Below, one piece after another: positions 13,805 through 59,897 of a stretch of 64,000 nucleotides of DNA (position 1 is the stretch's first letter; each line of letters starts with the position of its first letter). Origin of the DNA: Psammoneis japonica (taxonomy: Eukaryota); contig QPGO01000007.1 of the NCBI GenBank assembly GCA_008632985.1, positions 620,001 through 684,000 of the forward strand, in the 5' to 3' direction. The translations under genes and the position numbers were made by a program. The notes below the pieces were generated by a model. It was not told where the DNA came from, did not search any database, and was given only the letters and a program-made list of their open reading frames with translations.

Positions 13805-15885
13805 GATTGACAGTCTTGCTCATTGTCAACCCATTGAGCAACCGCCATCGTCGTCGTTGATTTACCGACGATGCCACCCTCAATTCTGCGTGGACCTCCG
13901 CATGTGTTCTGCGTACATCGGCAAGTCTGCGCGCATTCAACACCAGGCATCGGCAGGAATTTAACGTCACAGTCAAGTCTCCTCATCGCTGGACATCTGG
14001 ATTGATCACACTGCCTTTTGTCGCTGAAGACATGCATTCAACGGTCATGTCCAAGTCTGTCCTTGATCCTCATCCCTTTGTGTGCCCACTCAACGGTTAA
14101 CGGTCAAGAACCCCACACATTCAAGGATCTTCGTCGCTGAAGACATGCATGTGTGCACATCTTCACGGCCAAGAACTTGTGCCCACTCTTTGGACTGCGG
14201 CTTTGCCACCACTCTACAAGCACACCGAGTCCGTTGCACCTGATCTGCCCCAGACCACTGGTGCTCTGCAGTTCCACTGGGTCCACGAGGACGACTGTGA
14301 GAGCAAGCAGCCGTGATCACAGCCCACGTTGGGGCGAGGGTGTTTTCCCGCGTTTGTTCGTTTGTCCACAGCACCCAATGCCTGCGTCAACTGGCCAGCC
14401 TGATCGGGAAATCCAACCGACACAAAATAAGAATGGCCCAGGGGTCTTGTCCACCTCTGGTCAGCTTGCCTGCAGGGGTTTGCAACCCGCTGCTCCGCTC
14501 GCAAGCAACCCAAAGCGCCGCCAGCTGCGGGTTCGGACGTGCCGGCACAACTCTATGGACCGGACAGGAAGTGTGGCACTTGACAACGAACGGGATGGCA
14601 CAACCCAGCGACTTCTGATTTTAAGATGGTCCAAGATTTCAAGTCAAGTCTAGCTCAAGTCAAGTCTTTTTCAAGCCAAGTTCCAAGTCAAAACTCCGAG
14701 TCAAGATCGCGCTCTAGATTGGTTCCTGTCTTTTGTTTCTGCTGCACCGTCCTCCGTCATGGTTCTCACGTGACAGCAACAAACCAAAAGCTTCAAATGC
14801 ATTCCAGGCACTGTGCTCAATCAAGACGATGACAGCCCTCTTCATTCTGCCCTGTCCATCAATGGGATTGAATCGTGTGAGGAGTTGTTCACGTTCTCAC
14901 CCACCCAAATTGATGCCCTCACTTGCAGAGACGGCGCCAATGCAGTGCCTTTGCCATGGACCCACAGAAACCTCCTGGCAGCTTTGATCAGCTTCTAGTT
15001 TGTCAAAGTTTGCAATGGTGATGATGTGACCAATGAACCCCAGTTGCTCACACCCGACGAATTTCGCAACTGCCGCCTCGGTCCGGACCACTTGACCTCT
15101 CTAGCCACTGGCGCAACACCCTCCGCACCTGTGCCGAGTCCCTTGCCATCCAAACCAGGTGAACCCAGTGCCATTTTGACACCAGCCTTGCACTGTGCCG
15201 CCACTCAGGTGTCCCCTGGAAGTGGTGTCAGTCGCGCCCCGCATGTCTTGACCAACCCGCCTGCAAGCAACCTCGGCCCAGTGCAGGATTGCAGCCCTTG
15301 CACAGGCCCGCACTTCAAGACCAGTTGGGACACTCCACCCATGGCTTCCAAAGCTGCAGTCTTTGCACCCCGCAAACCACGTGCTGCCAACCTCCACATG
15401 TCGACCGCTGTCACCCTTCACAGTCTTCGTTTGGGAAGTGATGGAGATGACAACTTGCTTCTCGCATCTCCTGATGGGGAGCCTCCTTTTCCCGTCATTG
15501 AATCTGTTCACAACAGTTCAACCGGTTCATCAGATGGGGAGTTCAGGACATCCAAGCAGCTTCGTTGTCTTCGGATCCTCCAAGCATCACACCATGAGAC
15601 CAGGCCTCCTGACTGGATGCTCCAAGTCTCGTACCTCAAGACTGGGCCTCCTGATTGGATGCCCCAAGTCTCGCACCTCGAGACTGGGCCTCCTGATTGG
15701 ATGCCTCAAGTCTCGTGCCTCGAGACTGGGCCTCCTGATTGGATGCCCCAAGTGTCGCACCTCGAGTCCAGGTCTCCTGATTGGATGTCCCAAGTCTCGC
15801 ACCTCGAGACCAGGCCTCCTGATTGGATGCGCCTCAAGTCTCGTGCCTCGAGACTGGGCCTCCTGGTTGGATCCCCCAAGTCTCG

Positions 15886-16264
15886 TGCACCATGCTCGAA
15901 GAACGAGTGCAAACGAAAGTGGAACGAAGTTCAAAAGGTGAAAATTGTGAGAATTGTTTCTGCGCAATCATTTTGGGTTTCTCCGAACGGGTTCTCAACA
16001 GCCCAAACCTTTTGCACTGCTCCCACAGGCAAAAGGCCTTTCGGAGAATGTGATCGTGACGACAGATTGTCCGGATACGATTGACATTGACACATGAGAT
16101 GTCAACATCATCGTATGATCGCATTTGCGATTCTCGACATCCGATCACTTCTGTGTGACTGATCTGTGCTTCGTACGAACCCACGATTGACGCACGATTG
16201 AAATGTGCTTTTATTCAACACACAGATGTGCACATGCAACACGTGCATGACAACGCATGTTGCA
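15886..16264 (-). repeat. Gypsy 3' LTR (379 bp)
   Basis: Aligns without gaps to 20695-21073; TG...CA ends. Confidence 0.93.
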
Positions 16265-16290
16265 TTCGCCTCCCCAATTGCACACTGGAG

Positions 16291-19200
16291 TCAGTCGTTA
16301 AACGGCATTGTTCGACGAATGTTGACAGTGTCAACAACGTTGCCGCGTTTGATCTGCACTGTGCCATCAGTGTGTGCCGTTGTCATTGCATGCGGTCCAA
16401 CACAGGGCTGTTCTAATTTTTGCGAGTCTTTCTCGAGCAGTGTCTTTTCTCCCACTCTGTGCGCGCAAGGAGTGCGCCGAGCATTCTCTCGAGCGTCATT
16501 TTTATTTGTGATTTCTTGTTTTCGCTGCTGGATTGGTTTCCAGTCTGCGACATGTTGGACGTTAAATGTCATGTCTCCATTGAAGACTGGTTGTTCTGGT
16601 GCAGCTTGCGCAGTGGTGTGATGCACAGAATGCACCGCAAACGCTGCCGCTGACAGCATTCCAGCGAAAGGATCCTCAGCATCTAGAGGTGCATGTTGCA
16701 AATCAAATGCACGGAGCATGTTCCCCAGCACTTGATGTGCGCGTTCAATGATTGCGTTTGCTTGTGGATTTCGTGCAGTTGTGGGCTTGACTTCAATGCC
16801 ATGATCATCTTGCACCATTTCTCTAAATTGGTGTCCGATGAACTCACTTCCACGGTCACATGTAATTGACAATGGCCAAGGACATCTGCCTGACCATGTT
16901 CGTTCTAGCAGTCCAGCTGCAGCCATGGACTCCTTATTTGGGATTTCCACAACTTCAAACCATCCGGTTGCTGGATCGATCATAGTTAAACATTTCAGGA
17001 CTGGGGTTTTTTTCTTTCCCTTACGACGTATTTTGTATGGCCCAATAAGGTCCACACATAGTCGTTCCCATGGTACGGATTCTGCGCACTTAGGAGGTAA
17101 ATGTCCATATTTCTTGTGTTTCTTTTTGAATTTTTGGCACGTCTCACATATCGACACGTATTTTCGTATGTCTTCACGTAAGGTGGACCACCATAGGTGT
17201 TGTGAGATTGTTTCTTCTGTTCGATTTATGCCAGGGTGAAGAAGGTACGTATGATACCAATCTATCACTGCCTTTTGTAACGTCCTCGGGACGACAATTT
17301 TATCCTTATGACATATGAGCAACCGGTCTCGCTCGCCTCCACGAAAAGTCTTCGTATGAAACGTCTTATTTGACAATTGGGAGAGAATGTCTTTGTCCCG
17401 TTTTTGTTCATAATCAAGAACTTTGTAATTTAACGGAAAGACATTGTCGTAGGATTTTGGTAGGACCTTTTCAGCTAGCTCTTCTGTGCTGAGGGTTTCC
17501 ATAGGTTCTATTTTCTTCATAGTAAGTCGGCTAATCGCATCTGCGACAATATTTGCCTTGCCCTCAAGGTGTGTTATTTTGGGACTGTATTCTTCTATTA
17601 TTAGACGCCAACGCATGACTCTGTCCGTTGTGAAATTTTTGTGTGTGAGATTTTTGTGATCCGTATATATATTTATCTGTTGGCCAAACAGTATATTGCG
17701 GAACTCTTTTAACGTCTCCACTATGGACAATAGTTCTTTTTCTGTTGTAGTGTGACGCGTTTGCGCTCCATTCAGCTTGCGGCTGTAGAAGGCAATTGGT
17801 CGGTTTTTCTGAGTAATAACCGCCCCCAATTGAGAATTACTGGCATCGGCACGTATCTCAAAGGGTGTGTTAAAATTCGGGCACGACAATGGCATGTCTT
17901 TGGAGATGATGCGCTTCACATTTTCGAAGGCTTTTTGTTCTGTTTCGGTCCATTGCCACTTCACTTGGGTAGAAGTGAGTTTGGCTAAAGGAGCTAAAAC
18001 ATGAGATCGTCGAGGCCACATGTCTCGACAGCAGTTGATCACACCGATGAAGCGCCGCAATTCCTTGCGAGTTTCAGGAGTTGCGATCGCGTGAATCGCT
18101 TCTGCTTTTTTTGGAATCGGACTGATGCCCTTGCGGGTGATGTGAAAGCCCAGACAGTCTGCTTCGGGTTTAGCGAAAAAGGACTTCTCGGCGTTGACCT
18201 TCAATCCGGCTTGTTCCAGGCGCAAGAACACCGTTTCAAGCTTCTTGAGGTGGTCTTGAAAACCACCTTTTGCAAGACACAATGTGTCGTCAACACAAGT
18301 TCTGACGAACTCCAGACCTGCCATGAGCTCACTCATGTGCTCTTGGAAAATGTCTGGAGCTCCACAGATTCCCATCGGGAGTCCACAGCACTCACACTTG
18401 CCCCAAGGCATGACGATCGTGCACAAGCGACGTGCATGTGGCGTCAATTCGATGTGACAGTGTCCCATGTTTAAATCCAGGGACATTGCATGCATGAAGC
18501 CTTCGAGCTTCTGCAGCATGTCCTGAACATTGGGTGGAGGAAACGGAGTGCGAATTAACCTCTCATTCAGCTCACAAAAGTCGGGTGAGAACCGAACTCT
18601 ACCATTTTTCTTGGGTTGAACAAAGGTTGGAGCCGCCCATTCAGAACATTTTATTTTTCTCAAGACTTTCAACTTGCATGGTCTTTCAACCTCCTTACAA
18701 GCAGTCGCCTCCAAGGCTTGTGGTGCGGGAAATGGTTTGGCATGATGCGGACTCACGCCCGATTTCAACTTTAAATCCACCGGTTTCCTGGTCCATTTGC
18801 CCAGAGAACCATCAAAAAGGTTTTCAAATCTTTTTAAGAGGAACTTCAGCTGCTTCTGCTCTTCAGGAGTTAGATGAGCAGCTGCTGCGGTCACATTGTT
18901 GAGGTTTGCAGCGTGACAGTCTGAGTCAAGGATCCGATTGACCCTGTCATTAAGACTGATCACTGCATGAGATTCCTCAATGTGATCGGCAATCAACTTA
19001 AAAACATCGGCATCAAAGAGTGTGTCAACATTCTTCACAGGAGTGGTTGCATCTTCCCATTTAATCTCTTCATTCGAGAAGTCCAATGTTGTCCCAAGAC
19101 TTGACATTAAGTCGCGTCCCATGATCACATCACAACAACTCGAAGAAGAAGGGGAGCTGTCAACATGTGCCGTTGTTTCAATCATCTCATGTTTGTCAAA

Positions 19201-19395
19201 TTTGGGCAAGGAGAATTGGATCTTACATCGACTGTCAGTCGTGAAGAGCCCTCCTTTGGTTTCCCAGAGTTTGGTGGCGGATGCTTTTGTTCTGAGTTTC
19301 CGCGTGAATTTGCACAAAATTATGGTTGGCGATGTTCCGCTGTCGAGGAGAACGCGCAGAGGCTTGTTTTTCGCCTTGCCCAATGAAGTGTTCAC
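16291..19395 (-). pseudogene. pol: Gypsy pol (protease, RT, RNase H, integrase); frame open but missense-damaged
   Basis: 'LLDSG', 'LPMG...APDIFQ', 'CVDD' in place of Y(I/L)DD, 'DAS..QLGAV', 'YTDHKNL', 'HPG...C..CQ', 'CDRGSEF' and 'NPQANAIIERAHQ'. Confidence 0.93.
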
Positions 19396-19527
19396 ATGGG
19401 CGACGACTGCTGGACTAGTGTGAATTACTTTGGCCCTTTTTCTGGGCTTCCCAATGTCCAGCAGAGCGCAAGACTCCTCTTGCGGTGCAAGTCATTCCTC
19501 AGAATCACTGCGCGTCATTTTTTCAAA

Positions 19528-20658
19528 CTAACAATTTTCCTTGTCAAGGGTGTCAGAATCACAATCTTTGCTCTTGTGTTTTTTGTCATTGTTCGAAGAA
19601 CTCGCTTTGAGTGTTTTTTGAACTGCTTGGATCGCCATGGCATTCAACTCTTCTTTGCGAGCGGCGTTGTCGTTATCGCGACGAGACCACGTGCGATTGC
19701 CATTTGAACGGCGCCGTTTCGGGTCGGGTTCATAGTTCCCACGGCGTTCTTTCGCAAGTCTTTTGATCGACCAGCACTTGTCCGTGTCATGAGTGGATTT
19801 CTCGCGTGAAATGCACCACTTCTCGGACTGAGATTTTTCGGCACCATGTTGGTGACCATTTTTGGAACCACGTTGGGAACCACGTTGGGAACCACTCTTG
19901 GCTTTTGATGCAGTGCCGCCACTGCCATCAGCCTTGGCATGAATGCCATCAAACATGTCTTCTGCGACCTCTGGGCGCTCCAAGAACTCAACCAACTCGT
20001 CACAGGTGTGTTTCAAAATTTCGAAACCCTGGACGGTCGACTGACGCTGCCACTTTCGAGGTGCAAGGTTGAAGAGGATGTCCTTGAGCTCGTCGTCCTC
20101 GATCTTCTGTTCCTTCCCAAAAGGAGGATAGAACTTGAGGTCTTCGTTGACTTCCTGGACCCAAGCAGCAATTTCGCGCACTTTCATGGACTCCGGCTTC
20201 TTGAGATCACGACGCAAATAACGTTTCTGCACCGAAAGTGCGTTCTTGGGAAACACATGCCTTGTGAGATGTTGCAGGCATTTCTCAAAGCTTCCTTCCG
20301 CAGATTCGTCTTCAAGGTTCGCTGCCGCATTCTCAAAAGCACGTAGAGCGTCTCCTTGGAGTGACATGCGCATGAGACGAAACTTGTCAGATTGCTTCCT
20401 GATGTTCTGGCCCACTGGAAGTTGATCGTAGCTCTTGAGAAATTCGATGAACTTGGGGACACCTTGTTTCTTGTAGCACTCAACATTGATGGTGCAGGTG
20501 CGGCTGTCCTTCTTCTCGGGATGAAAACGTTGCTCCATCTTGAGGTGCTGGCTCGGTTTGAGGCTCTTTGGCTCGGAGTTCGATTCCAGCGGTTGAGGGA
20601 CGATTTTCTCCTGCCTTAACGAAGTTTTGGCGTTGGTTGCATGAGGTGAAAGCTTCAT
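19528..20658 (-). pseudogene. gag: Gypsy gag, in the same frame as pol
   Basis: Lies between the 5' LTR and pol; 'QKRYLRRDLKKP' and a degenerate Zn knuckle 'WCISREKSTHDTDKC'. Confidence 0.85.
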
Positions 20659-20694
20659 CTTGAACTTGTTACCTTCTGTGGTGTGTACACACAA

Positions 20695-21073
20695 TGCACT
20701 GTGCTCGAAGAACGAGTGCAAACGAAAGTAGAACGAAGTTCAAAAGGTGAAAATTATGAGAATTATTTCTGCGCAATCATTTTGGGTTTCTCCGAACGGG
20801 TTCTCAACAGCCTAAACCTTTTGCACTGCTCCCACAGGCAAAGGGCCTTTCGGAGAATATGATCGTGACGACAGATTGTCCGGATACGATTGATGTTGAC
20901 ACACAAGATGTCAACATCATCGTACGATCGCATTTGCGATTCTTGACATCGGATCACTTCTGTGTGACTGATCTGCACTTCGCACGAACCCACGATTGAC
21001 GTACGATTGAAACACACTTTTATTTAACACATGGACATGCATGTGTGACACGTGCATGACAACGCATGTTGCA
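20695..21073 (-). repeat. Gypsy 5' LTR (379 bp)
   Basis: Aligns to 15886-16264. Confidence 0.93.
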
Positions 21074-22073
21074 CTCGTACCTCGAGACTGGGCCTCCTGA
21101 TTGGATGCCTCAAGTCTCGTACATCCAGACTGGGCCTCCTGATCGGATGCCCCAAGTCTCGTGCCTTGAGACCAGGCCTCCCAACTGGACTCTCCACGTC
21201 TCGTGCCTTGAGACCGGGCCTCCCAATTGGATCCTCCACGTTTCACACCTCAGGACTCGGCCTCCGGATTGGATCCCTCAAGTCTTGCGCCACGAGACTC
21301 GGCCTCCTGATTGGATCCCCCAAGTCTCGCACCTCAAGACTTGGCCTCCTGATTGGATCCCCAAAGACTCGTGTCACAAGACTGGCAAGTCCTTTTGGAT
21401 CCCAGAAGTCTTGCAGCACGGGACTGGTTGCCCCAATCAGACATCTGCAGCCTTGCACCACAAGATGTCTTGCTCCAATCCGATCCCCGAAGGCTTGCAC
21501 CTTGAGACTCGTTTCTCCAATTGGATCAGTCTCTCAGGAGATGCAGCTGAGCTTGCAATTGGATTGGTGGAACACAAGACCACCGCTTGTGCCTTTGAAC
21601 TCATGCTTGCTCTGTTCCCCGAGTCGTGCAAACGCCATGCCACCCTGCACGAGCACTGCTCTGTTTTTCCAGCAGCAGCCCAGTGTGGCAACAGTCCCAA
21701 GAACCAACAGACGGCCATCAGTCTTTATGACCTTCGCTCAGGAAGTGAAGGCGATGTCAACTTGTTTGCATTGTCCTGCAATGTTGCCCCGCCGTTCAAC
21801 ATTGTCAACCAGACCAAGCTTTGCTCCTTCCATTGCAAGTGCAGATGTGGAATCCCACAAGATCCCAAGTGTGCCTTGAGCTTTGAAAAGCACAACGGCA
21901 TCTGCAATTGGGGAGACGCTGCTCATTTCAAGATGACCCACTTGGAGAATGCAACGTTGCTCTTGGATCTTGATCCTTTCTTGTCTCCTCATGTTTTGGT
22001 GCTTTGACTCCAAAGTTCTTCAGTCAATCCGAAGTCGAATCTGTTTTTGTGACTCCTCAAGCAAACTGGGGAG

Positions 22074-22524: not shown

Positions 22525-24576
22525 CGTTGGACCCAAGCAGCGCAGCAGAAATTTGGTCATTGGAAATGACTTGTTGCTCAAGTGCAGCACGTGTGTGTGC
22601 CAAGATGTGCGGGGCACACATTGTGCATGGTGACTTTAAACACATGGTTGTTGCTTGCTGTTGTGTGTTTCCGTTGGTTGGCACTCTTGCTTCAAGTGAT
22701 TTGCGACCACAAAAATCACACATCATTTCGTCTCACCTTTTTTTCTCACAACACCACACTTGGCCGGCAGAGTGCAGAGTGTGGGAGAATGGCACTTGTC
22801 ATTCAACGAGAGCACCGTGACTTGTCGGCAAGATTTGATCATGTTGGCATGCAGGCAAACATGGTGGCACTCAATGGCAAGGCACCAGCGAGGGTGCGGA
22901 TTTTGATGATGACGGCAAGATTCAGCATGAGTTGCCAGCATCAACATTTGTTTGTCAGACAAGCAAATTCTCTGCATCCTCCATTGCTCTGCTCTGATGC
23001 ACTTGGCCCCGCTCCCGGTGTGCATCGCGCATGATGCACATGCGAACTTCAGAAAATCGCCCAAAATCGCTGACGTGCATCGTGGGCGATGCACGTGAAG
23101 TCTTTTTTGGCACTGCTTTGTTGCTGAAACTTGTCTCTTCAGCAAGAGCCTCTGTTGATGAATGTCAACACATCCTCGTCTTCTGCTGCGCTTGATGTGC
23201 TTTGTGCTGTTTTTCCAGGGTTTGATTGGCTTGTCTCGTCCTCCAACAATTGTTTCATTGACTGCCTCTCGGAAAGTGCGAGACAACAACACGACAACAA
23301 GGTGCGAAAACTTCCGACTGCGTTGCACTGTCTAGAAACATTTCCGGGTGAGGGAAGCAAATCCGGGTGATTGCAGCGACTTCACACGTGGAAAAGACGT
23401 GGAAATGCACACTGAGTGCATCGCCCACAGTGCACATGTGCAGAAGCCACGCAAGTTTTCCCGCCACAAACACCCAATGTTTACATCATGTCAGCTTCGA
23501 CAAGAACAGTTGAACTTGGCTCTTTTTTGCTTTCAGGGAAGAACAACCTCTGTGTTGACTGTGAGATTCACGCAGTCAGTCCGATTCAAGCTCTGCGGGG
23601 GAAAAGCACGAGAGGTCTGAATCAGTGTGCATCATGCGTGATGCACACAATTCGGGGAGTGGGGTTAGGGCCCTGGGCAAATGCATGTATGAGTTAGCCG
23701 GGGTGGGGCTAGTTGGTCGTGCACGTTTGGGTTCGATGTGATGAGCAACCAGCCATGACACGGCGTGGGTCAAAACGTTGTAAAATGACTCGACAACAAG
23801 CAGTGAGAAGAAACCCAGCTTCACCCATGAATACAGCGCGTAAATATTGTCCAATCGATTTGATCGTATCTGGAAATACCAACTGGTAGACAAGTGAACG
23901 GCGTTTGCGTTGCTCGCCATGGTGTTGTTGTGCGTTGTCGTGCCCGCTGTTATTGCGCGCGAAGGGGATCTATTTTGCCCATAGTGAATCTGTTTTGCCA
24001 ATAGTAGATATTTTACTATATGCAATCGGGAGATATTTTGAGAAGCGCTTCGCGACAAATCTGTTCGGACCGTTAAATAGAACTTTTTTTATCCAGATTC
24101 CAGAGTTCTTTCGGGGTGTTCTGTCAGATTTTTTAACAAGTATATGTGTAAATTAAAGGCATTAGAAAATTCAATGATATGTAAAACCCTAAGAGACGAA
24201 CATAAATTTATCTTCCATGTAGACCACGTAGATTGTGTACCGGCGGAAAATCCACCGCATGTCAACTCACTCAGTAGTAATTCTACGTATATTCTACTTA
24301 CACCTCACACGCGTACACACACCTACACAGTCTAATAACCGCGCACACGTGCGCGAGACCACACATGCGAATGCAACTTAGACATCGATATAGAAACACA
24401 TGTTTTTTACTGTATTTACACGCCAACGAAGACCGTTAAATGTCAGGTCAGCTTGTGCGTTCTTCTCTTCCCTCATAAACCTTACCTTCGGTTTTCGGTT
24501 GTGCTTGGTGCATCTGCCAGCATCTCCTTTGACCGACGGCAGAGTCTGTGAAAGAGTCGCCGCATTTGTTTTTGTC

Positions 24577-25533: not shown

Positions 25534-28249
25534 ACCAAGACCACTTAGAACTGAATCATTCTTGTGGCAGAGCATGAATCGGGGTGTCACCGGGTCATGT
25601 GCAGAGGGAGGGGAATGCGTGTCGAGAACTGACGATGAGGCTGAGCCGAGGTGGGTCATGATGTCATGATGCGCGAAGGGTGCGTTTTGCGCGGCAAGCG
25701 CGGGGGGCGACTCCGATTTTCGTGTTTACGATCTTGTCTTAAGATGTTGCGGGGTGTGCGATCAGCACTCTGCCACCGGCAGACACTGGCTTGATCCTGA
25801 CAACTGGTCTCCTCTGTGGATTGCCCCTGCGGTGCCATTCCTCCCTCTGCCGGGAAAGAATGGCAACTCAGCTGTGATGTCCTGCGATGATGAACCCAGT
25901 TCGGAGCTCCGTCAAAAACACCCTCAGACTGACGAGCATGCGTCAGATCAATCTTGCCTCTCCCACAAATCTTGTGTCATTGTTGGTGCCACTGGGTCCC
26001 CCGTTAGAGAGAGACGGCACGCCAATTAGCTGCAACTCTTCCCCTTTCTTCAAAGGAGCCTCCTCGTCCTCAGCCTCTTGCTGTTGCTGAAGTGGTTTTT
26101 TTCGGCGTTCTTCATTTCGTTTGCTGATTCGTTGCCAACTGACCTCTTTTTCATGTTCACTCATTTGGTCCCAATTGTGAATTCTTCGTGTGCTCCCTCC
26201 ATGTTGTGGTGAACTGGCTTGTCCAAGAAAATGGACGAGCCGGGATTTTCCTCTCCAAAAATGGGGAGGTTTTGCCCATCCCGACAAGATGTTTGGCAGT
26301 GCCTGGAACAGGGCAGTGATGCAGAAGGCGCAGGTCATGTCAAACTGACCTGACTGGGGCTGGTGTCAGCTCAAGGGGACTGAGCAACTCCAGCCATGCT
26401 TTTGCCGAAATGGGTGCCAGGACCGTTTGGCGAAGACTGCCACTGTCGCTCAAATGGTGGGTGGCGCAAAGCAACCCTCACAATTTCTAGAATCCTGTTG
26501 ATTGCCGCAACAACACTTTTCTTTAGTGTCTTGTCAATTCTTGGTGACTGCAGTGTGATTTGCTCAAAACCATGCAAAAGGCAGTGACGGACGGCAATGT
26601 CTCTTTCTCAGTTCAGTGCGACACTTTCACATTGCTCCCAGCAGACAGGTCTTTTTTGATGTTCCTTCATCTGTCATTTCACAGATGGTGAATTTGTTTT
26701 TCACAAAAGGTGTTCATGCCCCTCTTGCGGAAAAAAATTGTGGACGCCCTTCTGCTGCACACCAGAAGCATCGCCTCTGTGCCAAACACACCACCGCTCA
26801 ACACAACCATGGTGGCAAACCCAACTGAGAATCCGCCCCCAAACAGTTGACAGATGGGCTGAATTGCAGGCTCGAGCTTGGTTGTGACAGAACACACAGA
26901 GACTCACAACACAACAACAAATTTTAACATTCCACATTCCTCACTCTCCACACCCCAAAACAAAGGACGATTGCATCCTCTCTCATGAGTGACAGCTGCA
27001 AAACTCAACACTCTGCCATTTGCCGTTCATGTTCACTTCGCTTGTTTGAGGGCATTTGTCTCCTTGCTCAGAATCTTCAACATTTTCTTTCTGGATCTTC
27101 TGGTCAACCTCATCATCTTGGAATGTGATTTCTTGAGCCCCGTCTTCTTGTCCCAGTCATGAACATCTTGTTGGCTCTTCTGTGCCCTCTCCATGGCTTG
27201 TTTTAGTGCATTCAGCCAACTTCTGCAATCCATTGTTTTGGTGCGTTCTACAATCAAGAGGTTCCGAGTCACCTTGGTTGACAACAGAGTCAGCTCGTTG
27301 TTGTGGCAGCTGCTGGGCCAGATCAAAAATGCAGTTCAGAAATTGAAGAACACTTCTCCTCCTCTGTGCTCACATGTTTGACCCATCATGTGGTGTCCCC
27401 GACAGCATCCCATTCTTTGGGCCTGATGTGTTGTCAGACAGAGAGCCATTTGTGACATTCAGAGACTGGGCTCGTTCAAGCCATGAGCTGTGACTTCTCA
27501 GCAGCATCACATGCTGCACTGGCAACTGGCAGATCTCAGCAAGCAGCTGCACAAGCTTTCTACACTGGCAGAAAGTGCAGGGAGCAGGTGCGCATGCACA
27601 CGACTCTCATGTGCAGCAGCACAGTGAGCAGATGATGCACTGACATGATTGCATGAAATCTACAATCAAGCCTGTGGCTGTCCTCCAGAGTCACACCAAG
27701 TGCAAAAAGACTTTCCTTCTTCTTTTTGTGAAGCCAAAGCAGCCAGTGTTGCACACAGCACTTGATGAGCCCCAAGAGATGAGTGCCAGTGCTTGGAGAG
27801 TGAACCTTTTTCTTCACATGGACAAAGATGTTCGCGCATGTGCATGAAGTGAGTGCACAATTTGTGCAACCAGGCGCAACTGTTTCACAGCAAAGCAGTC
27901 TTTGCACCTTGCTTGTTTGTTTGTTGCCAAATTCACAGCATGTCATGAGGCACAGTGATGCTGCTGCCACCTGCCACAATTGCTCAGAGCAACCTGCTGA
28001 AGTCACAGCAACTGTGCTGCTCAGCAATGCTTGGCAAACCAACTGCCTGCAGCTGCCTCAATGGAAAAGAGGATGGCTCATGCAGCCCTTGGCATCCTGA
28101 GAAAAAGGAGCAATGGCAGAAAGAGGGTGGGGCATCAGACATGCAAGAATCTGTGTGTGACTCAACAGAAACAGCACAACAGCATGCTGACATCACCACT
28201 GGACTGGCAAAGTGCCTGTTTGCAGAGGGTGGGGGTGGGGTGAGGTGGG

Positions 28250-31200
28250 GGCTGTTCTCAGAGGCCAGTGCCTCAACAATGTTCAACAAGACAACAGAGC
28301 AACAGAGCTCACCATGGAGCCAAACATCATGACAAACCAAGTGGTGGAGTGTGTGTGCACAGCAACAAAAAGCATCTCTTCCCCAGAGGTGTTTTGCACA
28401 AAAGTCCACAAAAGTCACAAGAGCTTGTTTGGGCTGCATTGCAGTGGCCGCTGAGCTGGCAGACAATTGCATTTTTTGAAATTTTCCTTTGCTCATTGAA
28501 GGAGGGGATGCCCCAGACCCTCTGCCAGACAGCATGTTGGCAGATTTGTTTGACGAGAGCAGAGAGAGCAAAAGGCTTGGCAGCACCACATGTGGTGCTT
28601 CAGGATTTTGATCCACGTGCACATGTCATGTCAGAGCTCATCTCATTTCACAAACAAATTGATCAGGTTGAAGCTGCCAAAGGTGGATTTCAAAACACTG
28701 AGACGAAAAGGCTCCATGCAAGTTGTGAGTGGGAAAAAGACAGCCCAAGTCTTTGGTCAAAAACAGCAAGAAAAATGCCAAGTCTTGCATGTTGTGAACA
28801 GCAACAACTGTGTGCACACAGCTTCACCAAGGAATGCCACAGTTTGCAGTGCACAACAAAAAAATTGAGACTGCACATCATCAATGAGATCACCAAAAGA
28901 AAAAGGACAACCTCCAGGCAGAATTGAGCACTGTGGTCAAAGCCATGGTTGAGAATGCACTCAAGACACATGGAAACCCAAGAGAAAAGCACATCAAAGG
29001 AACTGAACAAGTTCAAGGTGCTTTTGATCTCCAGCAACTCCAGTGGCAACAAATTGTCAGATGAAAATTTGTGTGCCTGGGGTGGAGGCTGACATGATGG
29101 CAACAAAAACTTTGTCGTTGTTGGCTGTTGTTGTGGTGCTCACACACACTGCACCCAATCAAGAGTTGGTGGTGGCAATGTGACAATTGCTGCAAATGGA
29201 ACTCACTGTGGAATCTTTGGGTGCAGATGTGAAGGTGGTCAACATTGAAATCAAGTTGGGAAGTTGTCCATTGGAATGGCAGACAACACCAAAAGGTCAA
29301 TGATGAGATGTCCACAAGAAGCATGGATGCTGCTGCCAGAAAAACAGCACCTCACACTTGGGAGCCCAAAATTTTTAAGAAGTGACAGGAACAGAATTTT
29401 GGTCATTTTCACAGCAAAATTTGAGCTGGCAGGAGATTTGCCTGAAGTTGCCAAAAATGCCAATGGCTTGAATGATTTTTGAAAGCAAAAAGTTCTTGCT
29501 TTCCTCAAAAAAGCCTGAGTTGCTCTTTGCTGGTGCCTTGGCAAATGGAAGGCAGGTCCCTTTCACACCCAGCTGAAGGATGCAGCAGAGCTGTTCCACA
29601 TTCTCAACACCCTCCCCATGAAATGCCAAGGGCATTTGAACAAATGCAAAAGAAGAAGATGCAACAACCTCACAGTGTCAATGACTCGAGCAAGCAAATC
29701 AACTGGAGTGGGCAGCTCTGTTGTCATTGTTCTAAAAAGGATTGGACCATCTGACTCTTGAACAAGTCTTGTGAGTTGGACAAAACAAGCACTTGGCTGT
29801 CACCTGAAAGCGTCAAGAAAAGTGAGCTCTGAGGACCTGTGCCAGTGCAGAGGGCTTTCACTTTACAGCAACTCTGCACTGATGAATTCACCAGAGGTCA
29901 TCATGTCTGAGAAAAAGGCCAACACAACTGCTCCAAAAATTTTGGCAGCATGGATGATTGTCTCAATGCTCATCAGCCAAGTTTGACTTAAACTCATTTT
30001 GCAAGCCAAAGTGGAAAATGGCAAAAATGTGAGCATGTTGCACCCACCTTGTTTGCAGCTTTGCATGCCAAGCATGTCCAAAATCTGAAAGCTCTGTTGG
30101 ACAGTGGAGTGAGCAGCACTTTTAATTGAAAAGAAGTGCAGCAAAAAAACGGCTGCAGGAAAATTCTGTGAAGAAATTGTGGAGCACTGTTGCTGCCTAA
30201 TTTTTAACAAACAAGCACTGCATTGTCAAACCAATGCTGCCAGAGAGATGCACCTGATGCAATGCTGTCAAAATTCTCAGCCCATTTGCACAATGGAAAG
30301 CTTGGCACTTGCGGCATGGTTGCAAGACAGGATGTTTTAGAAGCTCACAAGTGTCAATGTCACATTCTCCAAACAAGTCACCCAACAGCTGAAAGCCAAC
30401 AGTGAGACACCAATGCTGTGAAATGTGTGGGTGAAGCCCATTGCAAAGACTGGCTCCATGCTCAAGAGTCAAAAAAGCCAAAAAGCAACTTCAAGAGAAT
30501 CTCAGCCATTTGCCAGCTGCAGGCCAGTGGATTTGCCTCAAGTCCCTGAAAGCACTGAAGGTTCAGACAATTTTAAGAAGCAAAATTGCCGGACATTTTG
30601 AAGAAGTGTGAGCCACTGTTTTGCAGCACTTTGGGCAAGTGAAAGGGTGGTCCTTGCTGCTCCCAGCTGAAAGAAGGAGCTGGGCTGCTCCACACTCAAC
30701 CTTGTGAGATTGTAAAAAGGGCTTGCTGACAAACCCTGAAAAATGAGATGCAAAGACCATGTGGCACCCAAAAAAACAGTTTTGCAACCTCTTCCTGGTT
30801 GATCCCCTCAGCTGTGATAACTGACCCCATTTGACAAGTGGGAAACTGGGCTGTGTTGAGGTTAAAAAAAACAAGATCCTGCCTCAAGACAATTGTCATT
30901 GACAAAAACAATGCACAAGCTTGCTCAAGTCATTTTTCTGTCACTGGAAAGAGAAAAAAGTTGTGCAGAGTCAATGTTTGTCATGTTGTGCCATCCTCAG
31001 CATCTTCATCAGGTCTACAAACAGTGACCCTTCATGCTTGACTGTGTCCAAGCCAATGATGTCATTTAGAGTCAACCCTGAAATGTCCACTTTGTGTGTT
31101 GTGTCAGCAAGTTTGTTGGTGACAAAACCCTGTGAGCATGTCCCATGGATCAAAAGGTTTGCCAAACACCACAAGAGCAACAGAAAACAACGTGATCAAA

Positions 31201-31330
31201 TCACTCAAGCTCTCATGACATGACAAAGTGTTCTCACCCCTGCACCATTGGGCATGATGAGGAAATTCATCAAAATCACAGAGAGGGCAATCAAAAGATC
31301 AGCCAACCATTGGGAGTTGCGAGAGCACAC
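28250..31330 (+). mobile_element. Highly degenerate Gypsy-like gag/pol remnant
   Basis: 'HVVLQDFDPRAHVMSELISF', 'HSFTKECHSL' and 'RILVIFTAKFELAGDL' echo the gag/pol of the intact element; no LTRs found. Confidence 0.45.
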
Positions 31331-31898
31331 AATTGGCTCACAGATAGAATCAATGTGTTGGCCATGAATGGCAAGAGAAGAAAGCGTCCCTGTTGATCTC
31401 CCCTTCCTCCAAACCCTGCCACAGACAGTAGAAAGACATGCACATGGTGACTTGTTCAGCAAATGAAATGGAACATCTGCGAAGAACATTTCAAGGCCGC
31501 ATGTGAATCGGGAGCATGTTCCTGAGTCTGTTTCGCGATGCAAGACCACACGATCTTCTACTGTGGCCCCTAGCAAGAGTCACAACACCGGGCGGCTTGC
31601 ATGGGGAACACGAGAATGAAAACAAGGAGTAGTACACTGCTCCAATAGAATCCACGGCGCCCTAAATACTTGATTTTCTGTCTCCACAGAACAGGATTCT
31701 CTTTGAATCGATATTACATTGGATGAGCAAATCTAGCAAACATGTGGAGGACAAAATGGTTGCTCCGCGATGTGTGCTTACCCCAAGTATACCGACATGA
31801 GCACCGAGCTTACGAAACGGGTAAACGAGCAATATGGACTGCTCTATTAATCGATGATTTCTCTATTTTTTTTGTCAAATAAGAAATCCTCGAAACTA

Positions 31899-33799: not shown

Positions 33800-35300
33800 T
33801 ACAACTGGCATGAAGATTTCTTTGCCACACAAAAGGCCAAAGTAAAAGACTGCAGCATGCAAGCAACAAGGCACACGAAGCAAGCAGCAGCACATTTGAC
33901 ACGCCTGTCTGTTGCTGCGACTCTGTCGAAACAAGCGATGCCACAATGAAACCCTTGTCAAAGTCAACCACATTGCGGTGTAATTTGAGTTGCTTGACAT
34001 GCTTTTCAATGGTCTCCAGAGACATGGCTCCCTTTTTCATCTCTCGAGAGGTGACAGGCTGTGAAAGAACTGTGCGCGAGCACAAAAAATGTGCATGGTC
34101 GAGAGCACGCAGGGAAAACTTGCGGATTTTCTCAGTGGCGAGAGTGTGCAGCAGCCAACAATGACTCTCACACCAGTGCTCTAAAGTTCTTCTTTCCCTT
34201 TTTCCTTGACAAAGGTTGCAAATGGCAGCATTGCTTTGCCAATCCCCAGGAACATTCTGTGCCCTCCCTTGCCATTTGTGGACAACACCTGCGCGTTCAA
34301 TTGATTTTTGAGCCCATTTTTCGACCATTGTTTGCAACATTGTCTCCTCATTGACAAAACATTGCAGGTGGACATCAAGTGTGGCAGAGATGTGTGCTTG
34401 TCAGTCTCACCATCTTTGCCCTTTGCACCATCCATTGCATGCTTGCCAGGGTCGTTTGGATCAACTGGCCCAGCTGTGCTTGTGCAAGATTTGCTTCGAG
34501 CCTTTTGGTTGTTTGCACCACCCATGGTTCATATTTTGATCCATTTTTTCCACAGGCATGTTGTTGTTCTTGACTTGTCAACCAACTCATTCTTCTTCTT
34601 GCCCCTGATGCTGTTGATGTTCTTTTGCAGGAGTTTGTCACAGAGTTCAGGGCACGAAACTTCCGAGTTTCAGTCTCTCCTCCTCCAACAGGTGTGTCAC
34701 ACTTCTCAGCTTGTCATTGCTCCAGTGTCATCAAAAGTGATGTCCCTTGTCATTCCCACCAAAAACCATTGTCTGTGCTGATCCTGCAGATGACACACCA
34801 ATTGCCTCTCTGTCTGCAGCATCTCAGCGGCAGGTGCATTTTGCTCTGGCTGCCACTGACTCCTGCATTCATCATGCATTTGATGCACTCTCTGCTTGTC
34901 ATGCCCACAAGAATGTTCAAAAAGGAAGTGGTGGTCAAGCTTTGGATGCACAACCTTCAAGCAATCAACACAATCCTCCAGCTGGACCAACACATGGTGC
35001 TGCAGCTCCAGCGGCCTTCATTGTTGGTGCCACACTCAAACTCTCTAAGAAACAGGCTCTCAGTCAAAGCCAGCTTTGGCTGCTTTTGCCAAACACCACT
35101 TCTGCAGCTTCTCCAACCTTGTGGCACTGGAACAAGGGCTCCATTGTGCACCCACACCATCATCTTTTGGCGGCAGAACTCTTTTGCTGTTGAGGCCTGA
35201 CCAAGATTTTATGCTGAGCAAGCACTGCTTGAAATGGCTTCGGCTTGTCCAACAAAGATCACACCAACTGGCTTTACATTTGGGTCTTTGCACATGCTTT
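33800..35300 (-). mobile_element. Degenerate DDE (IS630/Tc1-related) transposase remnant
   Basis: Minus frame at ~34215-34290 reads PQMAREGTECSWGLAKQCCHLQPL (cf. HPELAGEGIEYSWGxAKxYYR), followed by 'IRKFS...IEKHVKQLKLHRNVVDFDKGFI'; family recognised from memory; upstream extent approximate. Confidence 0.55.
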
Positions 35301-38080
35301 CACTTCCTCTAAATCACACAGACAGCTTTTGGGTGAGTGTCAGATGGGGGCTGGCTAGAAAGCACTCCCCAGCCTGACAGAGCTGGGGCAATGCTGCTCA
35401 CAAAAAGTTGTTTCTGCCAAATTTGATTTTGCACCAACAAGCCCTGCAGTTTGCACCATGCTGGCAGTTGGCAGATGCCAGCAGCAATCACTCACATTGC
35501 AAGACTTGTGCAGCAAGAGATGCACATCAACTGCAAGTGACCTGCATCACAAGGGTGTCACACACACTTGAGTGCCCCTCCCCCACAAAAGTCACACCTG
35601 TTGAGCAAAGGCTTTGCACACACAATGCTGTGATGAACTTGGGGCAAAGTTTCTCATTCATGGAGCCAGTGTGCAGCAGCTCACACAACTCAAACATTTC
35701 ATGGCAACATGCGCCAACTCAGAAACAGCTCTCACAATCATTGTCATTGTCTCAACAACCTTTGCAACTGCTCAGCGTTCATCTCTGAACACAGTGCACA
35801 GTGCATGAGGCACACAGCAATGTTGCTCTTGCAAGTGCACAGAGAAGCTTGCATCCACCAACAAAAAACCAGCTGTCAACTGTCCTCCTCAAACCAACAA
35901 CAACAACCACCATGACCAAAAGAAGAGGGCCACATCTCCAACCCCAATGCAGCATCATGAGAAAAAGGAGCCACAGAAGGGTGTGAGCACCAGATGCATG
36001 AGCTGTGCAACTTGCCAGCAGAGGACAACAGCCCAATGCAAGAGCTGAGTGTGCCATGGTTGCTCAGCACCAGAACATGCGAAGAGTGGCTGCTCTTCCT
36101 GAGCAATTCCAAGCACATCATCCATGTTCAGAGCATCATCATGACTGGTGCAGAGAAGTGCTGCCTGCTCACATGCAGGAACTGTCAGAGGGCACAGCAC
36201 TCTTGTGAGAACACTCAACAGCAAGGCAGTGGAGTTTGCTGCTGAAACTGACACCAGCTGCATGGAGTGTGCACCAGAGGCAGTGACCAAGAGCATTTTT
36301 CCCAGGAGAGCAGCACTGTTGCAGAGGCACTGCTCAAAGCATGTGGTCAAAAGCCCACAGAAATGAAGTCTCAAGACTGCATTAAAAGGGCCACTCAACC
36401 AAACAGCTGCTCAAGGAATTTTCCTCCAGGAGGAGCTGAAGGAGGAGATGTGATCTGCAGCTGCTGTTGCCAAATGACAAACCAGCAGACTTGTTTAATT
36501 GTGGAGTTCTGAGTGCCTGGCAAGAACTCTGTGTGGTGGTTCTCCAGGACTTCAATCCACCCACTTGCACAATTTCTGAGTTTGTTGCTTTTTGCAAATG
36601 CACCAAGCAGGTTGAAAACACTGAAGGCATGATGTGTGTCAAAAACTGATTGAGAATGAGAAGATCCCACACAAGAGTGACTGGGAAAAAGGTGATGGCA
36701 CCAAGTCACTCACAGCAAACAGCAAAAAAACAAGCAAAATTTTGTGCATGTTGCACATCTTCAATTGTGTGCACTCAACCAAGGAGTGCCACAGTTTGAA
36801 GTGCCAGGTCAAAAAGATGAAGACTGTGCATTCTCAATTGAGTCAAAAGAAAAAAGTGTGATTGAGAGTTGAGCACCATGGTCAACACGGCAGTCAAAAA
36901 AGCACCTCAGACAAAGAAAATCAACAACATGTGCAGCCAAGAAAACCAAAGAGCTCTCAATGAGCTCACAAAGCTCTTGTTCTCCAGAAATTCTGAAAAC
37001 AAGTGCACCTGAGGATGTTGTGCTCAAGGTGCAGGCCAACATCACAGTCATGAAAATTTCAGCAGCACAGGTGAGTGTTTTTCTCTGCACAACTGATTTC
37101 TGGCAAAGAACTCATGGTGCAGGCCACTCACAAAAATGGCAAAAGCAAGAGCATGTGATGCCAATCTCACTTGCAGACTTGAAAGCCATGCATGACAAAG
37201 GCACGAAATGAAATTTCTGGAGGGCTTGTCAGGCACTGTTGCTTGTGAATGGAAAAGTTCACACTTGCACCACCTCAGAAAGCTCTGTCATGTCAGAGCT
37301 TTTTGCAGCACTCCTCTCGCCAGATTTTGCCTTGGCAGACAGCTCACAATTTTGGCTGCCAACACAGCTCTGTGAAGAGTGCAGCCTGGCTGAACAGCCA
37401 TTTGCCACTCACACCAGCAGTTGTCTCTTTGCATTGTTTTGCCTGACAAATCTTTTCTCCCCCGAGTGAGCTGGTGCCTTGGGCAAGGAGTCTGCAGCAG
37501 GCAGCCAAGGCAAGGAGCACCACGCAAGTCTTGGTTTGGCATCAACACAGTGCATTTGCTGCTTTGAACAAAGCAGCTCATTCTGCTCCACAGGTCTGGT
37601 GGCCCCGGTCCACCCACAAAGCTCGGAGCTCTGGAAGCCCACACTTGTTTTGCTCTGCCGCTCCTGCAGCACACAGCGGGCAACAGCTGTTGCCAAAGCA
37701 GGGTGGGCTGGCAGCCAGGCAGCTCCCACCAATGTTGTTGCACCAATGAACCAACTTGTGACCACTTCTCTTTGGGGTGCAGAGATGGGGTGAGAGAAGT
37801 GGCCAGTGCAAGCAAGAAAGCAAGGGCTGCTTTGTGTGTGTGCTTGCACAGGAGCTGGCCGGCAGCGGCCGACGCGGGAGTTCTTGCACCAAACAGCAGG
37901 CTCTCAGACCCCAGCAGAGGACTGACACCACACCCAAGCACCTCTTCCCCACACAAATTGAGTCTCGCAGTCTCTGTCTGTGTCTGAGGTGCGAATGCTG
38001 CAGGTGCTTCAACCTGCTGGCAGAGGCAGATGATGCGGCGCAAGCGGAATTCTGGGCCAGCAACACGTACGACGGGGGAA
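33860..38080. other. TpA/CpG-depleted block C
   Basis: TA nearly absent, TG/CA saturated, ORFs almost Tyr-free. Confidence 0.8.
36150..36900 (+). mobile_element. Degenerate Gypsy gag remnant
   Basis: 'WQELCVVVLQDFNPPTCTISEFVAFC' and Zn-knuckle-like 'CMLHIFNCVHSTKECHSLK'. Confidence 0.5.
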
Positions 38081-43790: not shown

Positions 43791-46700
43791 CACAGTGACC
43801 CCAAAATTTTCGAAAACGAGAAATGCAGTGCACAGTCTGCTCGCTGTTGTTTAGTCGTGGCGCCAGAACCCCGGGTGCGGCACCCGGTTTTTTTTTTAAT
43901 TTTTTTGACAAGGAAACCATGCATTCGACCAAGAAATTGCTGTTTTTAATGCAGAACAACAGCCGTTGACAAATGACACATGCATCCGTTGAATCGACAA
44001 GATGTCAACACGATTGTTCACAATCATTTCGGGCCTCACAGAACACAGAGCAGAACGCAATTTAAGGCCCGACTAAGAACTCCATCTATGAAGACGACAT
44101 GTTGTGTGTGCATTTCGCTTTTTTATTCGTTTGTGCGAAAGATCTCGTTGAACTTGTCAGAAAAAAATTGTCCAGCTTTTTCAAATCCGGGCAGTTGATG
44201 AGTTTTGGCGCGCAAACCAAAATGTCCAACGAGCCAGGATGACAACATGGTCGTGATTTAAGGCCCTCCACGTCACATGCGTAGAATTGGCACTACGTCC
44301 TACGTGGGATCCACACATTGCATCGACACGACACAAAAGATGCGCCATGGTGCCGCCAAAGAAGCCTCCGAAGACGGAAGAATGTGCTCCATCATGTTTG
44401 TTGACTGTGTCATCTTCATTCGTGAAGGTCATTGCAGCAAGGAGAAACCAGTTGAAATTTTCAAAAGCTGAAGAGTTCAATGAGAGGCACTGGAGAAACA
44501 GAGGAGAGCCATGAGGAGCAAGGCCAATGGATCCATGGACTGCAGAGACAAGGCTGCTCAGGATCCATTCATGCATCAACATGTTGAGGATTGGTGCAGT
44601 GTTGTTCATTCAGACCTCCATTTGTGGTGGCACAGTCATTTTTTTGCAGCTGCACTGCAGGTGGAAACGGCCGTTGACCATTCGTCGCGCACTGTTCCCG
44701 TCATGTTTTTGTGGAGCTCGTGCCTCGAATCCATCATTTGAGCCTGACAGCACAAGGGCCTTAAATCACGCCGGGCCTTAAATTGCGTTCTGCTCTGCTA
44801 AAAATCTGGCCTGACCCCTCGGACGAAGGTCAGACTTCCCTGTCAACAGACCGACAGAACATGTCGCGAATCCGTGACACGACCAGAGTTTGAGGCAATG
44901 AAGCCATTAAGACTGCACTTGCAACAACTGAAAACACCCTTGTTGACCATCACTTGCCTCTAAGAAGTGCTCCTGGGCTTCTTTGTACCTGGCAGGACCA
45001 AAGAATTGATGAAGGCAGGTCATGAGTTTTTTCAAAAATTGCAGTGGTGGCCGCACGAACGTGCCCCAAAGCGTCGTGAGTCGTGATGAGGGCGGGAGAA
45101 GCACAAGATTTCAAACTGCGTAAATCTTGGTGCTCATTCTACGTGTGTGGTAAATGTGTGCACTTTTGTACGAGGATGCAATGACGTGTGCCCTCTCTGT
45201 GACATGTGCTCAAATGCAGCATGTGCCCCCAGCATGTTGACGTGAGCAGACTGCACCGGCATGCATCAGCATGTGTGATGAGGAGTCCCTCCATTGCGCA
45301 GCCTGTCTGGGCCGCAGGGCCCTAGAGTTTGTGCTTGCCACTGCGCAAAACAGTTTTTTCAATCTCTTTTTGGTCAAATTCTGTGAACCCAGAATGCTGG
45401 ACAACGAACCCCACTTCTGCAAGATGTGGGGGAAAGCGGATGTTGTCAACAAGACAGAGCCAGAACACACACCAGGTGTCCTTGAAGATTGTGTTGAGCT
45501 TTGGGTTGTGCTCATTGGGCTGCACCCATTCAGTGCATTGCAGGCCTGTCATGACAAGGTCAATCTCAAACTGGCCAGCAAGGACAATGTTGATGGCATC
45601 TGGGTCTGTTCTTGCACAAATGGCATCTGCCATTGACCATGCCAGCACAGCTGCACAAGCAATGTGTGACTCATGACATTCCGGAACCTTGTCACACCTT
45701 TGGAGCTTGCCAAAGATGTCCTTGAAGATCCAACCCATCTTGGTGTCCACACTGTTGTCTTTGCAGATGTTGCAACAGTTGGAGCCAAACAGGAAACAAG
45801 TGCAGCAATGTTGCAGACATGTTCCTTGATGGTTCCTGTCAAGATGTTGCAACAGCACAGTGTGGCGCCCATTGCCAGATGTGAAGCACATGCAGCTGGC
45901 ACCAGCTGACAATGCTTGAGGTCTTTCCTGACCACAGTCATGTCTTCATCCCCAAGATGCCAGTTCACACTCTGGCAAAAGTGATGAAAATGGATTTGGC
46001 AGGAACAAGCTGCCCCAACATGCTTGGGCTCTGGGGGGGGGGCATTCTGCACTTGGCACACAGCTGCAAGGAGACAAGCTGTGCTGCTGCAAGAGCTCTT
46101 GACTTGACTGGAAACAGCCACAGGTCTTCAGAAAGAAACACTTCTGAAACAGCTGTTCAGAATGGGCCAAAGATGTGATCTCCACTGAAGTTAACATGCA
46201 CATGACAAAGCAGTTTGCAAAATGTCCAGACAAATCTTTGTCTCTGTGGCAACTTCAAAGTGCCAGATTGATGTGACATTCTTGTTGGAGCAACTCCAGA
46301 TGACAAGGTGCAGAGGGCAGAGGGATGACCCCACTCTGAAAGAGCTCATGCACCCATTCTGGAGTGATGGTCTCCATGCAAACAACAATGGCTGATTTGG
46401 GACAATCACAATGAACTCTGCTGCATTGATGTGGACACAGCCAGGGTCCAGGGACTTCTTCAGCCAGAGCCCCTTCACAACATTTGGTCCCCCAAGAAAA
46501 TGTTGCAAACCAAAACTTGAGCTCACAACAGCATGCTCCTTTGTGCCAACATTGCTGGCATCTCCAATTGCTTGGCAATGAGATGCTCAGGGAATGACAC
46601 ATCCAGTCAGGGCTGTCCATGGCTCCGACGTTGATTCAAGGTGGGATGCTGCTTCTTTGATGACATCCATCATGTCAGGTGTCATTGGCATCTCAATCTT

Positions 46701-59854: not shown

Positions 59855-59897
<43 letters not shown>

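Follow-up and report, generated by a model that had tools for sequence, protein, structure and literature searches.

Fixed Intervals of a Diatom Ty3/gypsy Retrotransposon Escape TpA Hypermutation in Some Copies

Introduction

In fungi, RIP hypermutates repeats through dinucleotide-specific transitions on both strands, converting CpA and TpG into TpA. APOBEC deaminates retroelement cDNA in a specific sequence context, on one strand, during reverse transcription. Hypermutation directed at TpA itself has been described in Bigelowiella natans, where it affects integrated giant-virus and virophage DNA (Mettrop et al., bioRxiv 10.64898/2026.01.13.699255). According to the accessible part of that preprint, the rate of TpA>TpG/CpA change is ~1000-fold over background and is seen in some lines only, an ADAT2-like enzyme was put forward as a candidate, and small RNAs or epigenetic marks were offered as guesses at how the mutator is targeted (10.64898/2026.01.13.699255). 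In the portions available of two further sources, LTR elements of Phaeodactylum tricornutum are reported to be CG-methylated by DNMT5, with a tie to silencing (PMC9998398), and Dnmt5 of Cryptococcus neoformans is reported to maintain methylation patterns for millions of years (bioRxiv 10.1101/149385). Besides the Bigelowiella preprint, a search mostly of literature outside subscription journals found no report of a TpA process in diatoms or of spared sub-domains.

The window analyzed here is a stretch of 64,000 nucleotides from the diatom Psammoneis japonica (GenBank assembly GCA_008632985.1, contig QPGO01000007.1, positions 620,001 to 684,000 of the forward strand), and all coordinates below are positions within it. 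It contains a retrotransposon copy that has lost most TA dinucleotides outside one island in its pol gene. Comparison with other copies of the family showed that escape from TA loss recurred at fixed positions, was almost all-or-none in each copy, followed copy lineage, and went together with low CpG decay.

Materials and Methods

Family members were searched for with 16300–19400, and 40 of 414 candidates were scored, yielding 30 loci including the window copy; this sample is biased toward copies resembling the window copy. In a separate gag search, 40 of 217 candidates were scored, giving 33 matches of at least 92%, 29 of which were already among the 30 loci; none of the four extra copies found in this way carried the full island A described below. 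Loci are designated by handles (L followed by a number), and L031–L046 were displayed outside the statistics. L029 and L034, two short contigs identical over 1,495 aligned bases, are probably one locus assembled twice.

Some copies were left out of particular comparisons. L011 and L013, which were partially and evenly mutated with no trace of either island, were omitted from the table of A/B combinations, L029 from the marker test, L011, L013, L026, and L029 from the same-interval CpG comparison, and L044 from the depth count. Read depth was taken from one public short-read run, whose contigs were placed on 16000–19000; 8 of the 676 pieces were listed.

Results and Discussion

The window element lay on the minus strand at 15886–21073, with TG...CA ends, and its domain order, LTRs, and target duplication identify it as a Ty3/gypsy LTR retrotransposon. 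The duplication, read from the sequence, was the 4-bp CTCG at 15882–15885 and 21074–21077. The two LTRs were direct, 379 bp each, and 91.4% alike. The 5' LTR (20695–21073, minus strand) lacked most TA in the window copy and was mostly TA-keeping in several others, while the 3' LTR (15886–16264, minus strand), which follows a short purine tract at ~16265–16279, was TA-stripped. A TA-stripped, gag-like ORF of 376 aa occupied 19528–20658 on the minus strand and had no Pfam match. The pol ORF (16291–19185, minus strand; 964 aa from the first listed ATG) carried domains in the order RVT_1, RT_RNaseH, Integrase_H2C2, rve, with reverse transcriptase at aa 191–349, RNase H at aa 412–533 (437–533 also given), the integrase zinc finger at aa 632–688, and the integrase core at aa 707–807. 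An LLDSG motif just upstream of the pol ATG, in the same frame, is presumably protease-like. The insertion had occurred in a tandem-repeat array (15570–15885 and 21074–21510) whose period was 14 codons and which was TA-stripped too.

The preliminary description had reported a TA-rich, Tyr-rich island within an otherwise hypermutated pol, and the counts agreed: 59 TA in the 871 bp of 16980–17850 vs 27 in the remaining 2,024 bp of pol (9 in 16291–16979 and 18 in 17851–19185; Fisher P 1e-13). All five motifs quoted for it (AFYSRKL, IYTDHKN, DWYHTY, KYGHLPP, and IGPYKI) were found in the minus-strand pol frame, and all 11 pol Tyr lay at 17037–17787 with none outside, as had been stated for the pol flanks; the gag ORF does contain a few Tyr. 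The span also matched the pol domain positions, from RNase H via the zinc finger to the start of the integrase core. Its edges were graded, with mixed shoulders at 16935–17029 and 17750–17855. We refer to it as island A and delimit, without strand, a core in which nearly all scored TA sites were kept in the window copy (17029–17749), a left shoulder (16935–17028), and a right shoulder (17750–17855), both shoulders mixing kept and changed sites. In a two-state model of the window copy, the kept segment ran from 16935 to 17749, with 44 of 47 scored TA sites kept. Calling the island unmutated was nearly right and somewhat overstated, as TG was present at 17002, 17570, and 17572.

Such an island could be an assembly artefact, with reads of intact copies or of an intact allele merged into the window locus, and a collapsed repeat or chimera had been raised earlier. 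Among the 8 listed contigs none bridged an edge of the window copy's island, the window copy's own alleles at 17571, 17573, and 17752 were absent from the contigs (which drop rare variants), and the assembly may have been built from this same short-read run. Against these points, depth over the 8 listed contigs rose with the number of assembled copies per haplotype (slope 39.6 per copy; r 0.97), and a contig specific to the window copy's LTR had a depth of 39.9. Depth tracks copy number; therefore, TA-rich islands are about as numerous in the genome as in the assembly. The islands also matched copy lineage, and the identical graded pattern appeared in two contigs, L029 and L034, with 0 differences in 1,495 bases. 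We consider an artefact highly improbable.

Differences between copies were dominated by one type of change. Of 9,128 differences between the window copy and the 29 other copies, 6,442 were A/G after T or T/C before A, split 3,180 vs 3,262 between strands. TA was the state common to copies, with TG and CA as alternative outcomes, and at 236 sites some copies had TA and others TG or CA. The choice between outcomes agreed between copies no more than site bias predicts (concordance 0.584 vs 0.597 expected), and sites changed in both LTRs of one copy were the same in 233 cases and different in 159. This independence, between LTRs and between copies, indicated that mutation came after insertion and separately in each copy. 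Editing during reverse transcription was rejected, as both strands were equally changed and the LTRs were changed separately. Tract-like processivity, another earlier suggestion, also failed: neighboring changes within 25 bp fell on the same strand at a frequency of 0.507 vs 0.500 expected, and no same-strand clustering, as single-pass processive tracts would leave, was present at any distance up to 600 bp. Without strand coordination of neighboring changes, the pattern indicated a site-by-site build-up over many rounds.

Adenine was changed more often with a pyrimidine 3' (0.48–0.59 vs 0.15–0.36), which we take to resemble the TA-pyrimidine preference of TadA-like enzymes. That preference was not found in the accessible part of PMC10661471. 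Twin insertions L036 and L037, which carry the same internal duplications and offer a handle for dating the mutator, had most TA changes in common, yet differed at 29 of 271 scored sites, and therefore the process continued after their split. Host genes were spared, with TA/AT at ~0.4–0.8 in gene blocks vs 0.0–0.3 in repeat blocks of the window. The genome also contained 24 matches to the silicon-transporter family, the best of them near 700 bits, which marks the host as a diatom. The TA hazard in copies was ~2.3 per site vs ~0.001 background changes per base, the background amounting to ~0.7–1 change per kb. With the baseline rate borrowed from Bigelowiella, the copies would be, very roughly, a few million cell divisions old.

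Nine matches to deaminase domains were present in the genome, one of them strongly TadA/ADAT2-like (L059). Genes of the TadA/ADAT2 type serve tRNA editing in most eukaryotes. A TadA-like deaminase domain was also joined to a 2-oxoglutarate/Fe dioxygenase in a single frame at L061:313-1785.

Other parts of the window differed from the element in their TA and CG content. Both TA and nearly all CG were lost in 27500–31500, 34500–37500, 45500–47500, and 51000–53000, which we read as older or more heavily methylated repeats; the studied element retains most CG. A many-copy repeat of 0.6–0.7 kb at 23685–24360 (40 candidates scored) was TA-rich in all 25 copies examined, even where both flanks were TA-stripped, and is seemingly a family spared by the mutator or a younger insertion. 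A proline-rich, low-complexity ORF with a signal-peptide-like start, broken by an N run, was located at 58771–61260.

The patchiness below 1 kb noted in the window copy was confirmed, with the qualification that its placement was not random. When the same interval was compared across family copies, a comparison that the preliminary description had proposed, island A (interval 17110–17740) was spared in 12 of 30. Over its core (17110–17750), 12 copies retained at least 92% of TA, 14 retained no more than 22%, and 4 were intermediate. Of 19 long kept segments, 12 had one 630-bp stretch in common, where random placement gave a mean of 5.4 and a maximum of 9 (P 0.0002). A second interval, B (16000–16800, unstranded), which is LTR-anchored and covers the integrase end and the U3 of the 3' LTR, was stripped in the window copy (3 of 56 sites kept), and 8 of 29 copies, the window copy not among them, retained at least 88% of its TA. 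The two were independent, with 2 copies keeping both, 10 A only, 6 B only, and 10 neither (P 0.40). The 5' LTRs were kept in some copies as well, about as frequently as 3' LTRs.

Sparing was strong. The TA hazard was 0.023 in kept vs 2.3 in stripped copies for A, and 0.044 vs 2.8 for B. The kept segments nevertheless held scattered TA changes, 43 of 55 confined to one or two copies. The left edges of the 10 A-only copies fell at 16935–17108, whereas the right edges of the 12 island copies ranged from 17749 to 19463. Island length dropped as the load elsewhere in the copy rose (rho -0.79 over 12 copies, partly circular for L009); its correlation with age was not significant (rho -0.38).

Several simple accounts of this recurrence were rejected. 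Selection on the RNase H and integrase protein does not fit the retention of silent TA sites, which equaled that of coding ones, and of the non-coding LTR. Descent from one mosaic ancestor does not fit flank changes that are independent and island copies that fall in three lineages. A neighborhood effect was set aside by eye, without a statistic, as islands occurred with stripped and with host-like flanks alike. The A copies showed no sign of being younger (0.72 background changes per kb, vs 24 in 8 comparable copies, with 34 in one outlier). Judged by their LTR divergence, the B copies could be younger (7/3,032 vs 22/3,743 and 26/3,185). A broad refractory zone in stripped copies was also rejected, its apparent excess being due to a few single sites. 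The single TA sites 17036, 17159, 17227, and 17602 survived in at least half of the 14 stripped copies with their neighbors gone, and 17159 (kept in 10 of 14) and 17029 (1 of 14) have an identical 8-base context. Such resistant sites are possible protein footprints.

Whether TA-rich sequence was pasted into stripped copies or shielded in place was judged largely from non-TA markers. Of 53 candidates, 27 were linked and defined lineages, with 4 linked markers in A and 4 in B. The A markers agreed with a copy's own flanks in 11 of the 12 island copies, the exception being L002. The marker-flank mismatch for A was 0.042, compared with 0.047 in copies without the island and 0.46 at random (permutation P 0.0004), and for B it was 0.052 (P 0.0012). 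The island A sequences themselves formed three haplotypes. Private transversions and non-CpG C>T changes occurred in kept segments at 0.80 (0.40–1.61) times their level elsewhere, compared with 0.037 for TA changes, in a test based on 12 such changes from 5 copies. Among 679 scored bases the window copy had no private background change and, taken by itself, does not inform this test. With shared alleles counted, transversions in kept segments were reduced (0.46, P 0.04). Lineage-true markers, undepleted private changes, scattered TA changes, and the trend of island length with load favor shielding in place, and we consider it very probable that the islands arose in this way, by some route.

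Gene conversion or cDNA recombination could instead have placed unmutated sequence over stripped copies, with preferred tract ends such as the purine run at 17007–17022. Island copies differed from the window by only 0–4 bases per 200 in 17100–17500, the left edges of A clustered within 175 bp, and L002 was discordant with its flank lineage, its island haplotype being unlike those of its flank-nearest relatives. However, conversion donors would need to share the recipient's lineage in 11 of 12 copies, a comparison in which the markers make up a small part of the 5–8% divergence between copies. Private background changes also exist inside the kept segments, and no pair of copies had a run of common changes above chance (longest 19, expected ~19). 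The mutator was active late, as the 29 of 271 sites in L036/L037 indicated, and a pasted tract would have had to resist it anyway. Conversion from an intact copy, which had been offered earlier for the window island, is thus disfavored by the lineage of the island markers; it is unlikely as an explanation here, and for the family as a whole it is largely refuted.

Shielding in place was accompanied by a second signal. In the A interval, CpG decay affected 4 of 336 sites in island copies vs 37 of 392 in the others, and in the B interval 3 of 312 vs 59 of 671. Decay was ~8-fold lower inside the island, and the ratio with copy and region fitted was 0.17 (0.06–0.48). Outside A, island copies also had somewhat less CpG decay (85/1497 vs 154/1750). 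Read from CpG decay alone, the islands are most likely unmethylated. Of the four options raised in the preliminary description, local protection is the one supported, by lineage markers, private changes, CpG decay, and bimodality.

The nature of the protected state can be approached through its location. The LTR is the promoter of an LTR element, and the location of B and of the 5' cases on the LTR suggested a promoter-like center in A too. Island A yielded no promoter, no tRNA, and no match to a known RNA (Rfam on 2 copies). Our preferred reading, which we regard as probable, is that fixed sites carry a long-lived, unmethylated, promoter-like chromatin domain from which the mutator is excluded. 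After insertion, a host process, whose enzyme may be an adenine deaminase, turns TpA into TpG or CpA site by site, on either strand and over many cell divisions, as the pattern of changes indicates. Fixed parts of the element (A internally and one per LTR) can hold a protective state independently and in some copies only, as in the copies compared here, and exclude the mutator by the ~60–100-fold that was observed. The state itself may be unmethylated promoter-like chromatin, a suggestion consistent with the low CpG decay in the same places, and maintenance-type methylation may keep it for very long, possibly with a role for the DNMT5-like gene described below. More speculatively, bound factors might help to hold the state, their sites lasting only while unmutated. 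The correlation with load suggests that island edges would erode as the load of a copy rises.

Protection in place need not involve methylation. The mutator could be blocked directly by transcription, by a bound protein, or by AT-rich DNA poor in nucleosomes, with the loss of CpG as a side effect of the mutator or of its repair. CpG loss could indeed be a by-product of the mutator: non-TA A>G changes fell as far as CpG changes inside kept segments, the two dropping together (ratio 0.17 each). AT and TA content also peaked in A and B (GC 0.41 vs 0.46), and a few single sites resisted change even where copies were otherwise stripped (such as 17159, retained in 10 of 14). ACGT words point the same way, with seven clustered at 17026–17364 (unstranded) inside island A, eight further ones in interval B, and none between 16634 and 17025; 8 lay in the A core and 8 in the B core, compared with 7 over 2.8 kb (uncorrected P 0.005 and 0.002). 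However, this enrichment was found post hoc, ranked second of 136 word classes, and was not significant once corrected, and identical sequence was fully stripped in about half of the copies, which makes composition alone insufficient. We consider protection of this kind rather unlikely.

The islands could also be footprints of reverse transcription, in which parts that were single-stranded at integration, upstream of a central and the 3' purine tract, missed a one-off de novo methylation and were never marked later. The sole long sense-strand purine run lies at the fixed edge of A (17007–17022, minus strand; the only such run of at least 12 bases in 15886–20900, adjoining the left edge of the island), and the variable edge is on the upstream side. 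B spans the 3' purine tract and ~400–500 bp upstream, and A and B vary independently. However, the run at 17007–17022 encodes a Lys-rich loop, may be incidental, and was one of five motifs scanned, and the footprint reading did not predict that 5' LTRs would be kept about as often as 3' LTRs. Such an origin is very unlikely in our judgment. Being post hoc, the ACGT clusters and the purine run at the edge of A are possible leads and not evidence.

Candidate methylation genes were present in the assembly. At L097:1125-8000, within 7 kb, Tudor, C5-methyltransferase motif, and SNF2 occurred in a row, as in a DNMT5-like gene. C5 DNA-methyltransferase matches were also located in TA-stripped DNA at L052, L053, L054, and L100, some with stops, and these are probably mobile elements carrying a methyltransferase.

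A more specific form of the promoter-like chromatin reading can be offered tentatively, namely that the TpA mutator reads CG methylation maintained by DNMT5, which would make the islands fossil epialleles. Each insertion would fix an on or off methylation state for each of a few sub-domains (internal pol and each LTR), the state would be inherited for about a million cell divisions, and the mutator would record it permanently in the DNA. If true, past chromatin states could be read from the sequence of diatom transposons, and an adenine mutator guided by methylation would add a new kind of system to genome defence.

Apart from this possibility, the family provides a natural experiment, in which one sequence, in ~30 copies of similar age, was stripped or spared over fixed intervals, with low CpG decay where it was spared. 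The recurring escape hints at what steers a little-known mutation process, and the TpA process is extended to a diatom and to retrotransposons.

Comparison with Known Systems

Position effects near purine tracts and context-specific, deamination-like changes in a retroelement recall APOBEC. Unlike in APOBEC- or ADAR-type editing, both strands were changed equally here, and the two LTRs separately.

The process resembles RIP in the dinucleotide-specific transition hypermutation of repeats on both strands. Its direction is the opposite, as TpA was lost and CpA and TpG were gained, and no strand-coordinated tracts accompanied the changes. In contrast to RIP, the spared stretches were the most alike ones, in at least 12 copies. 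Similarity did not prevent sparing, either in the near-identical island of 12 copies or in the 23685–24360 repeat, TA-rich in 25 of 25, and spared copies may speak against homology as the trigger of the mutator.

As in the DNMT5 systems, there may be a mark on LTR elements together with an enzyme able to hold copy-specific patterns, given the DNMT5-like gene found here. In its available portion, PMC9998398 links methylation to silencing and not to A>G change, and does not establish that diatom DNMT5 acts in maintenance alone.

The closest likeness is to Bigelowiella, with TpA>TpG and TpA>CpA changes on both strands of integrated foreign DNA and an inferred historical ratio of similar order here. 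The systems differ in that the target here was a multi-copy retrotransposon of a diatom, near saturation, whereas there it was a single-copy viral insert of a chlorarachniophyte. The accessible part of the Bigelowiella account describes no protected sub-domains, link to CpG decay, or 3'-pyrimidine preference, all of which were seen here. The type of mutation is known from Bigelowiella, and what this family adds is its positional, copy-wise escape in a diatom retrotransposon.
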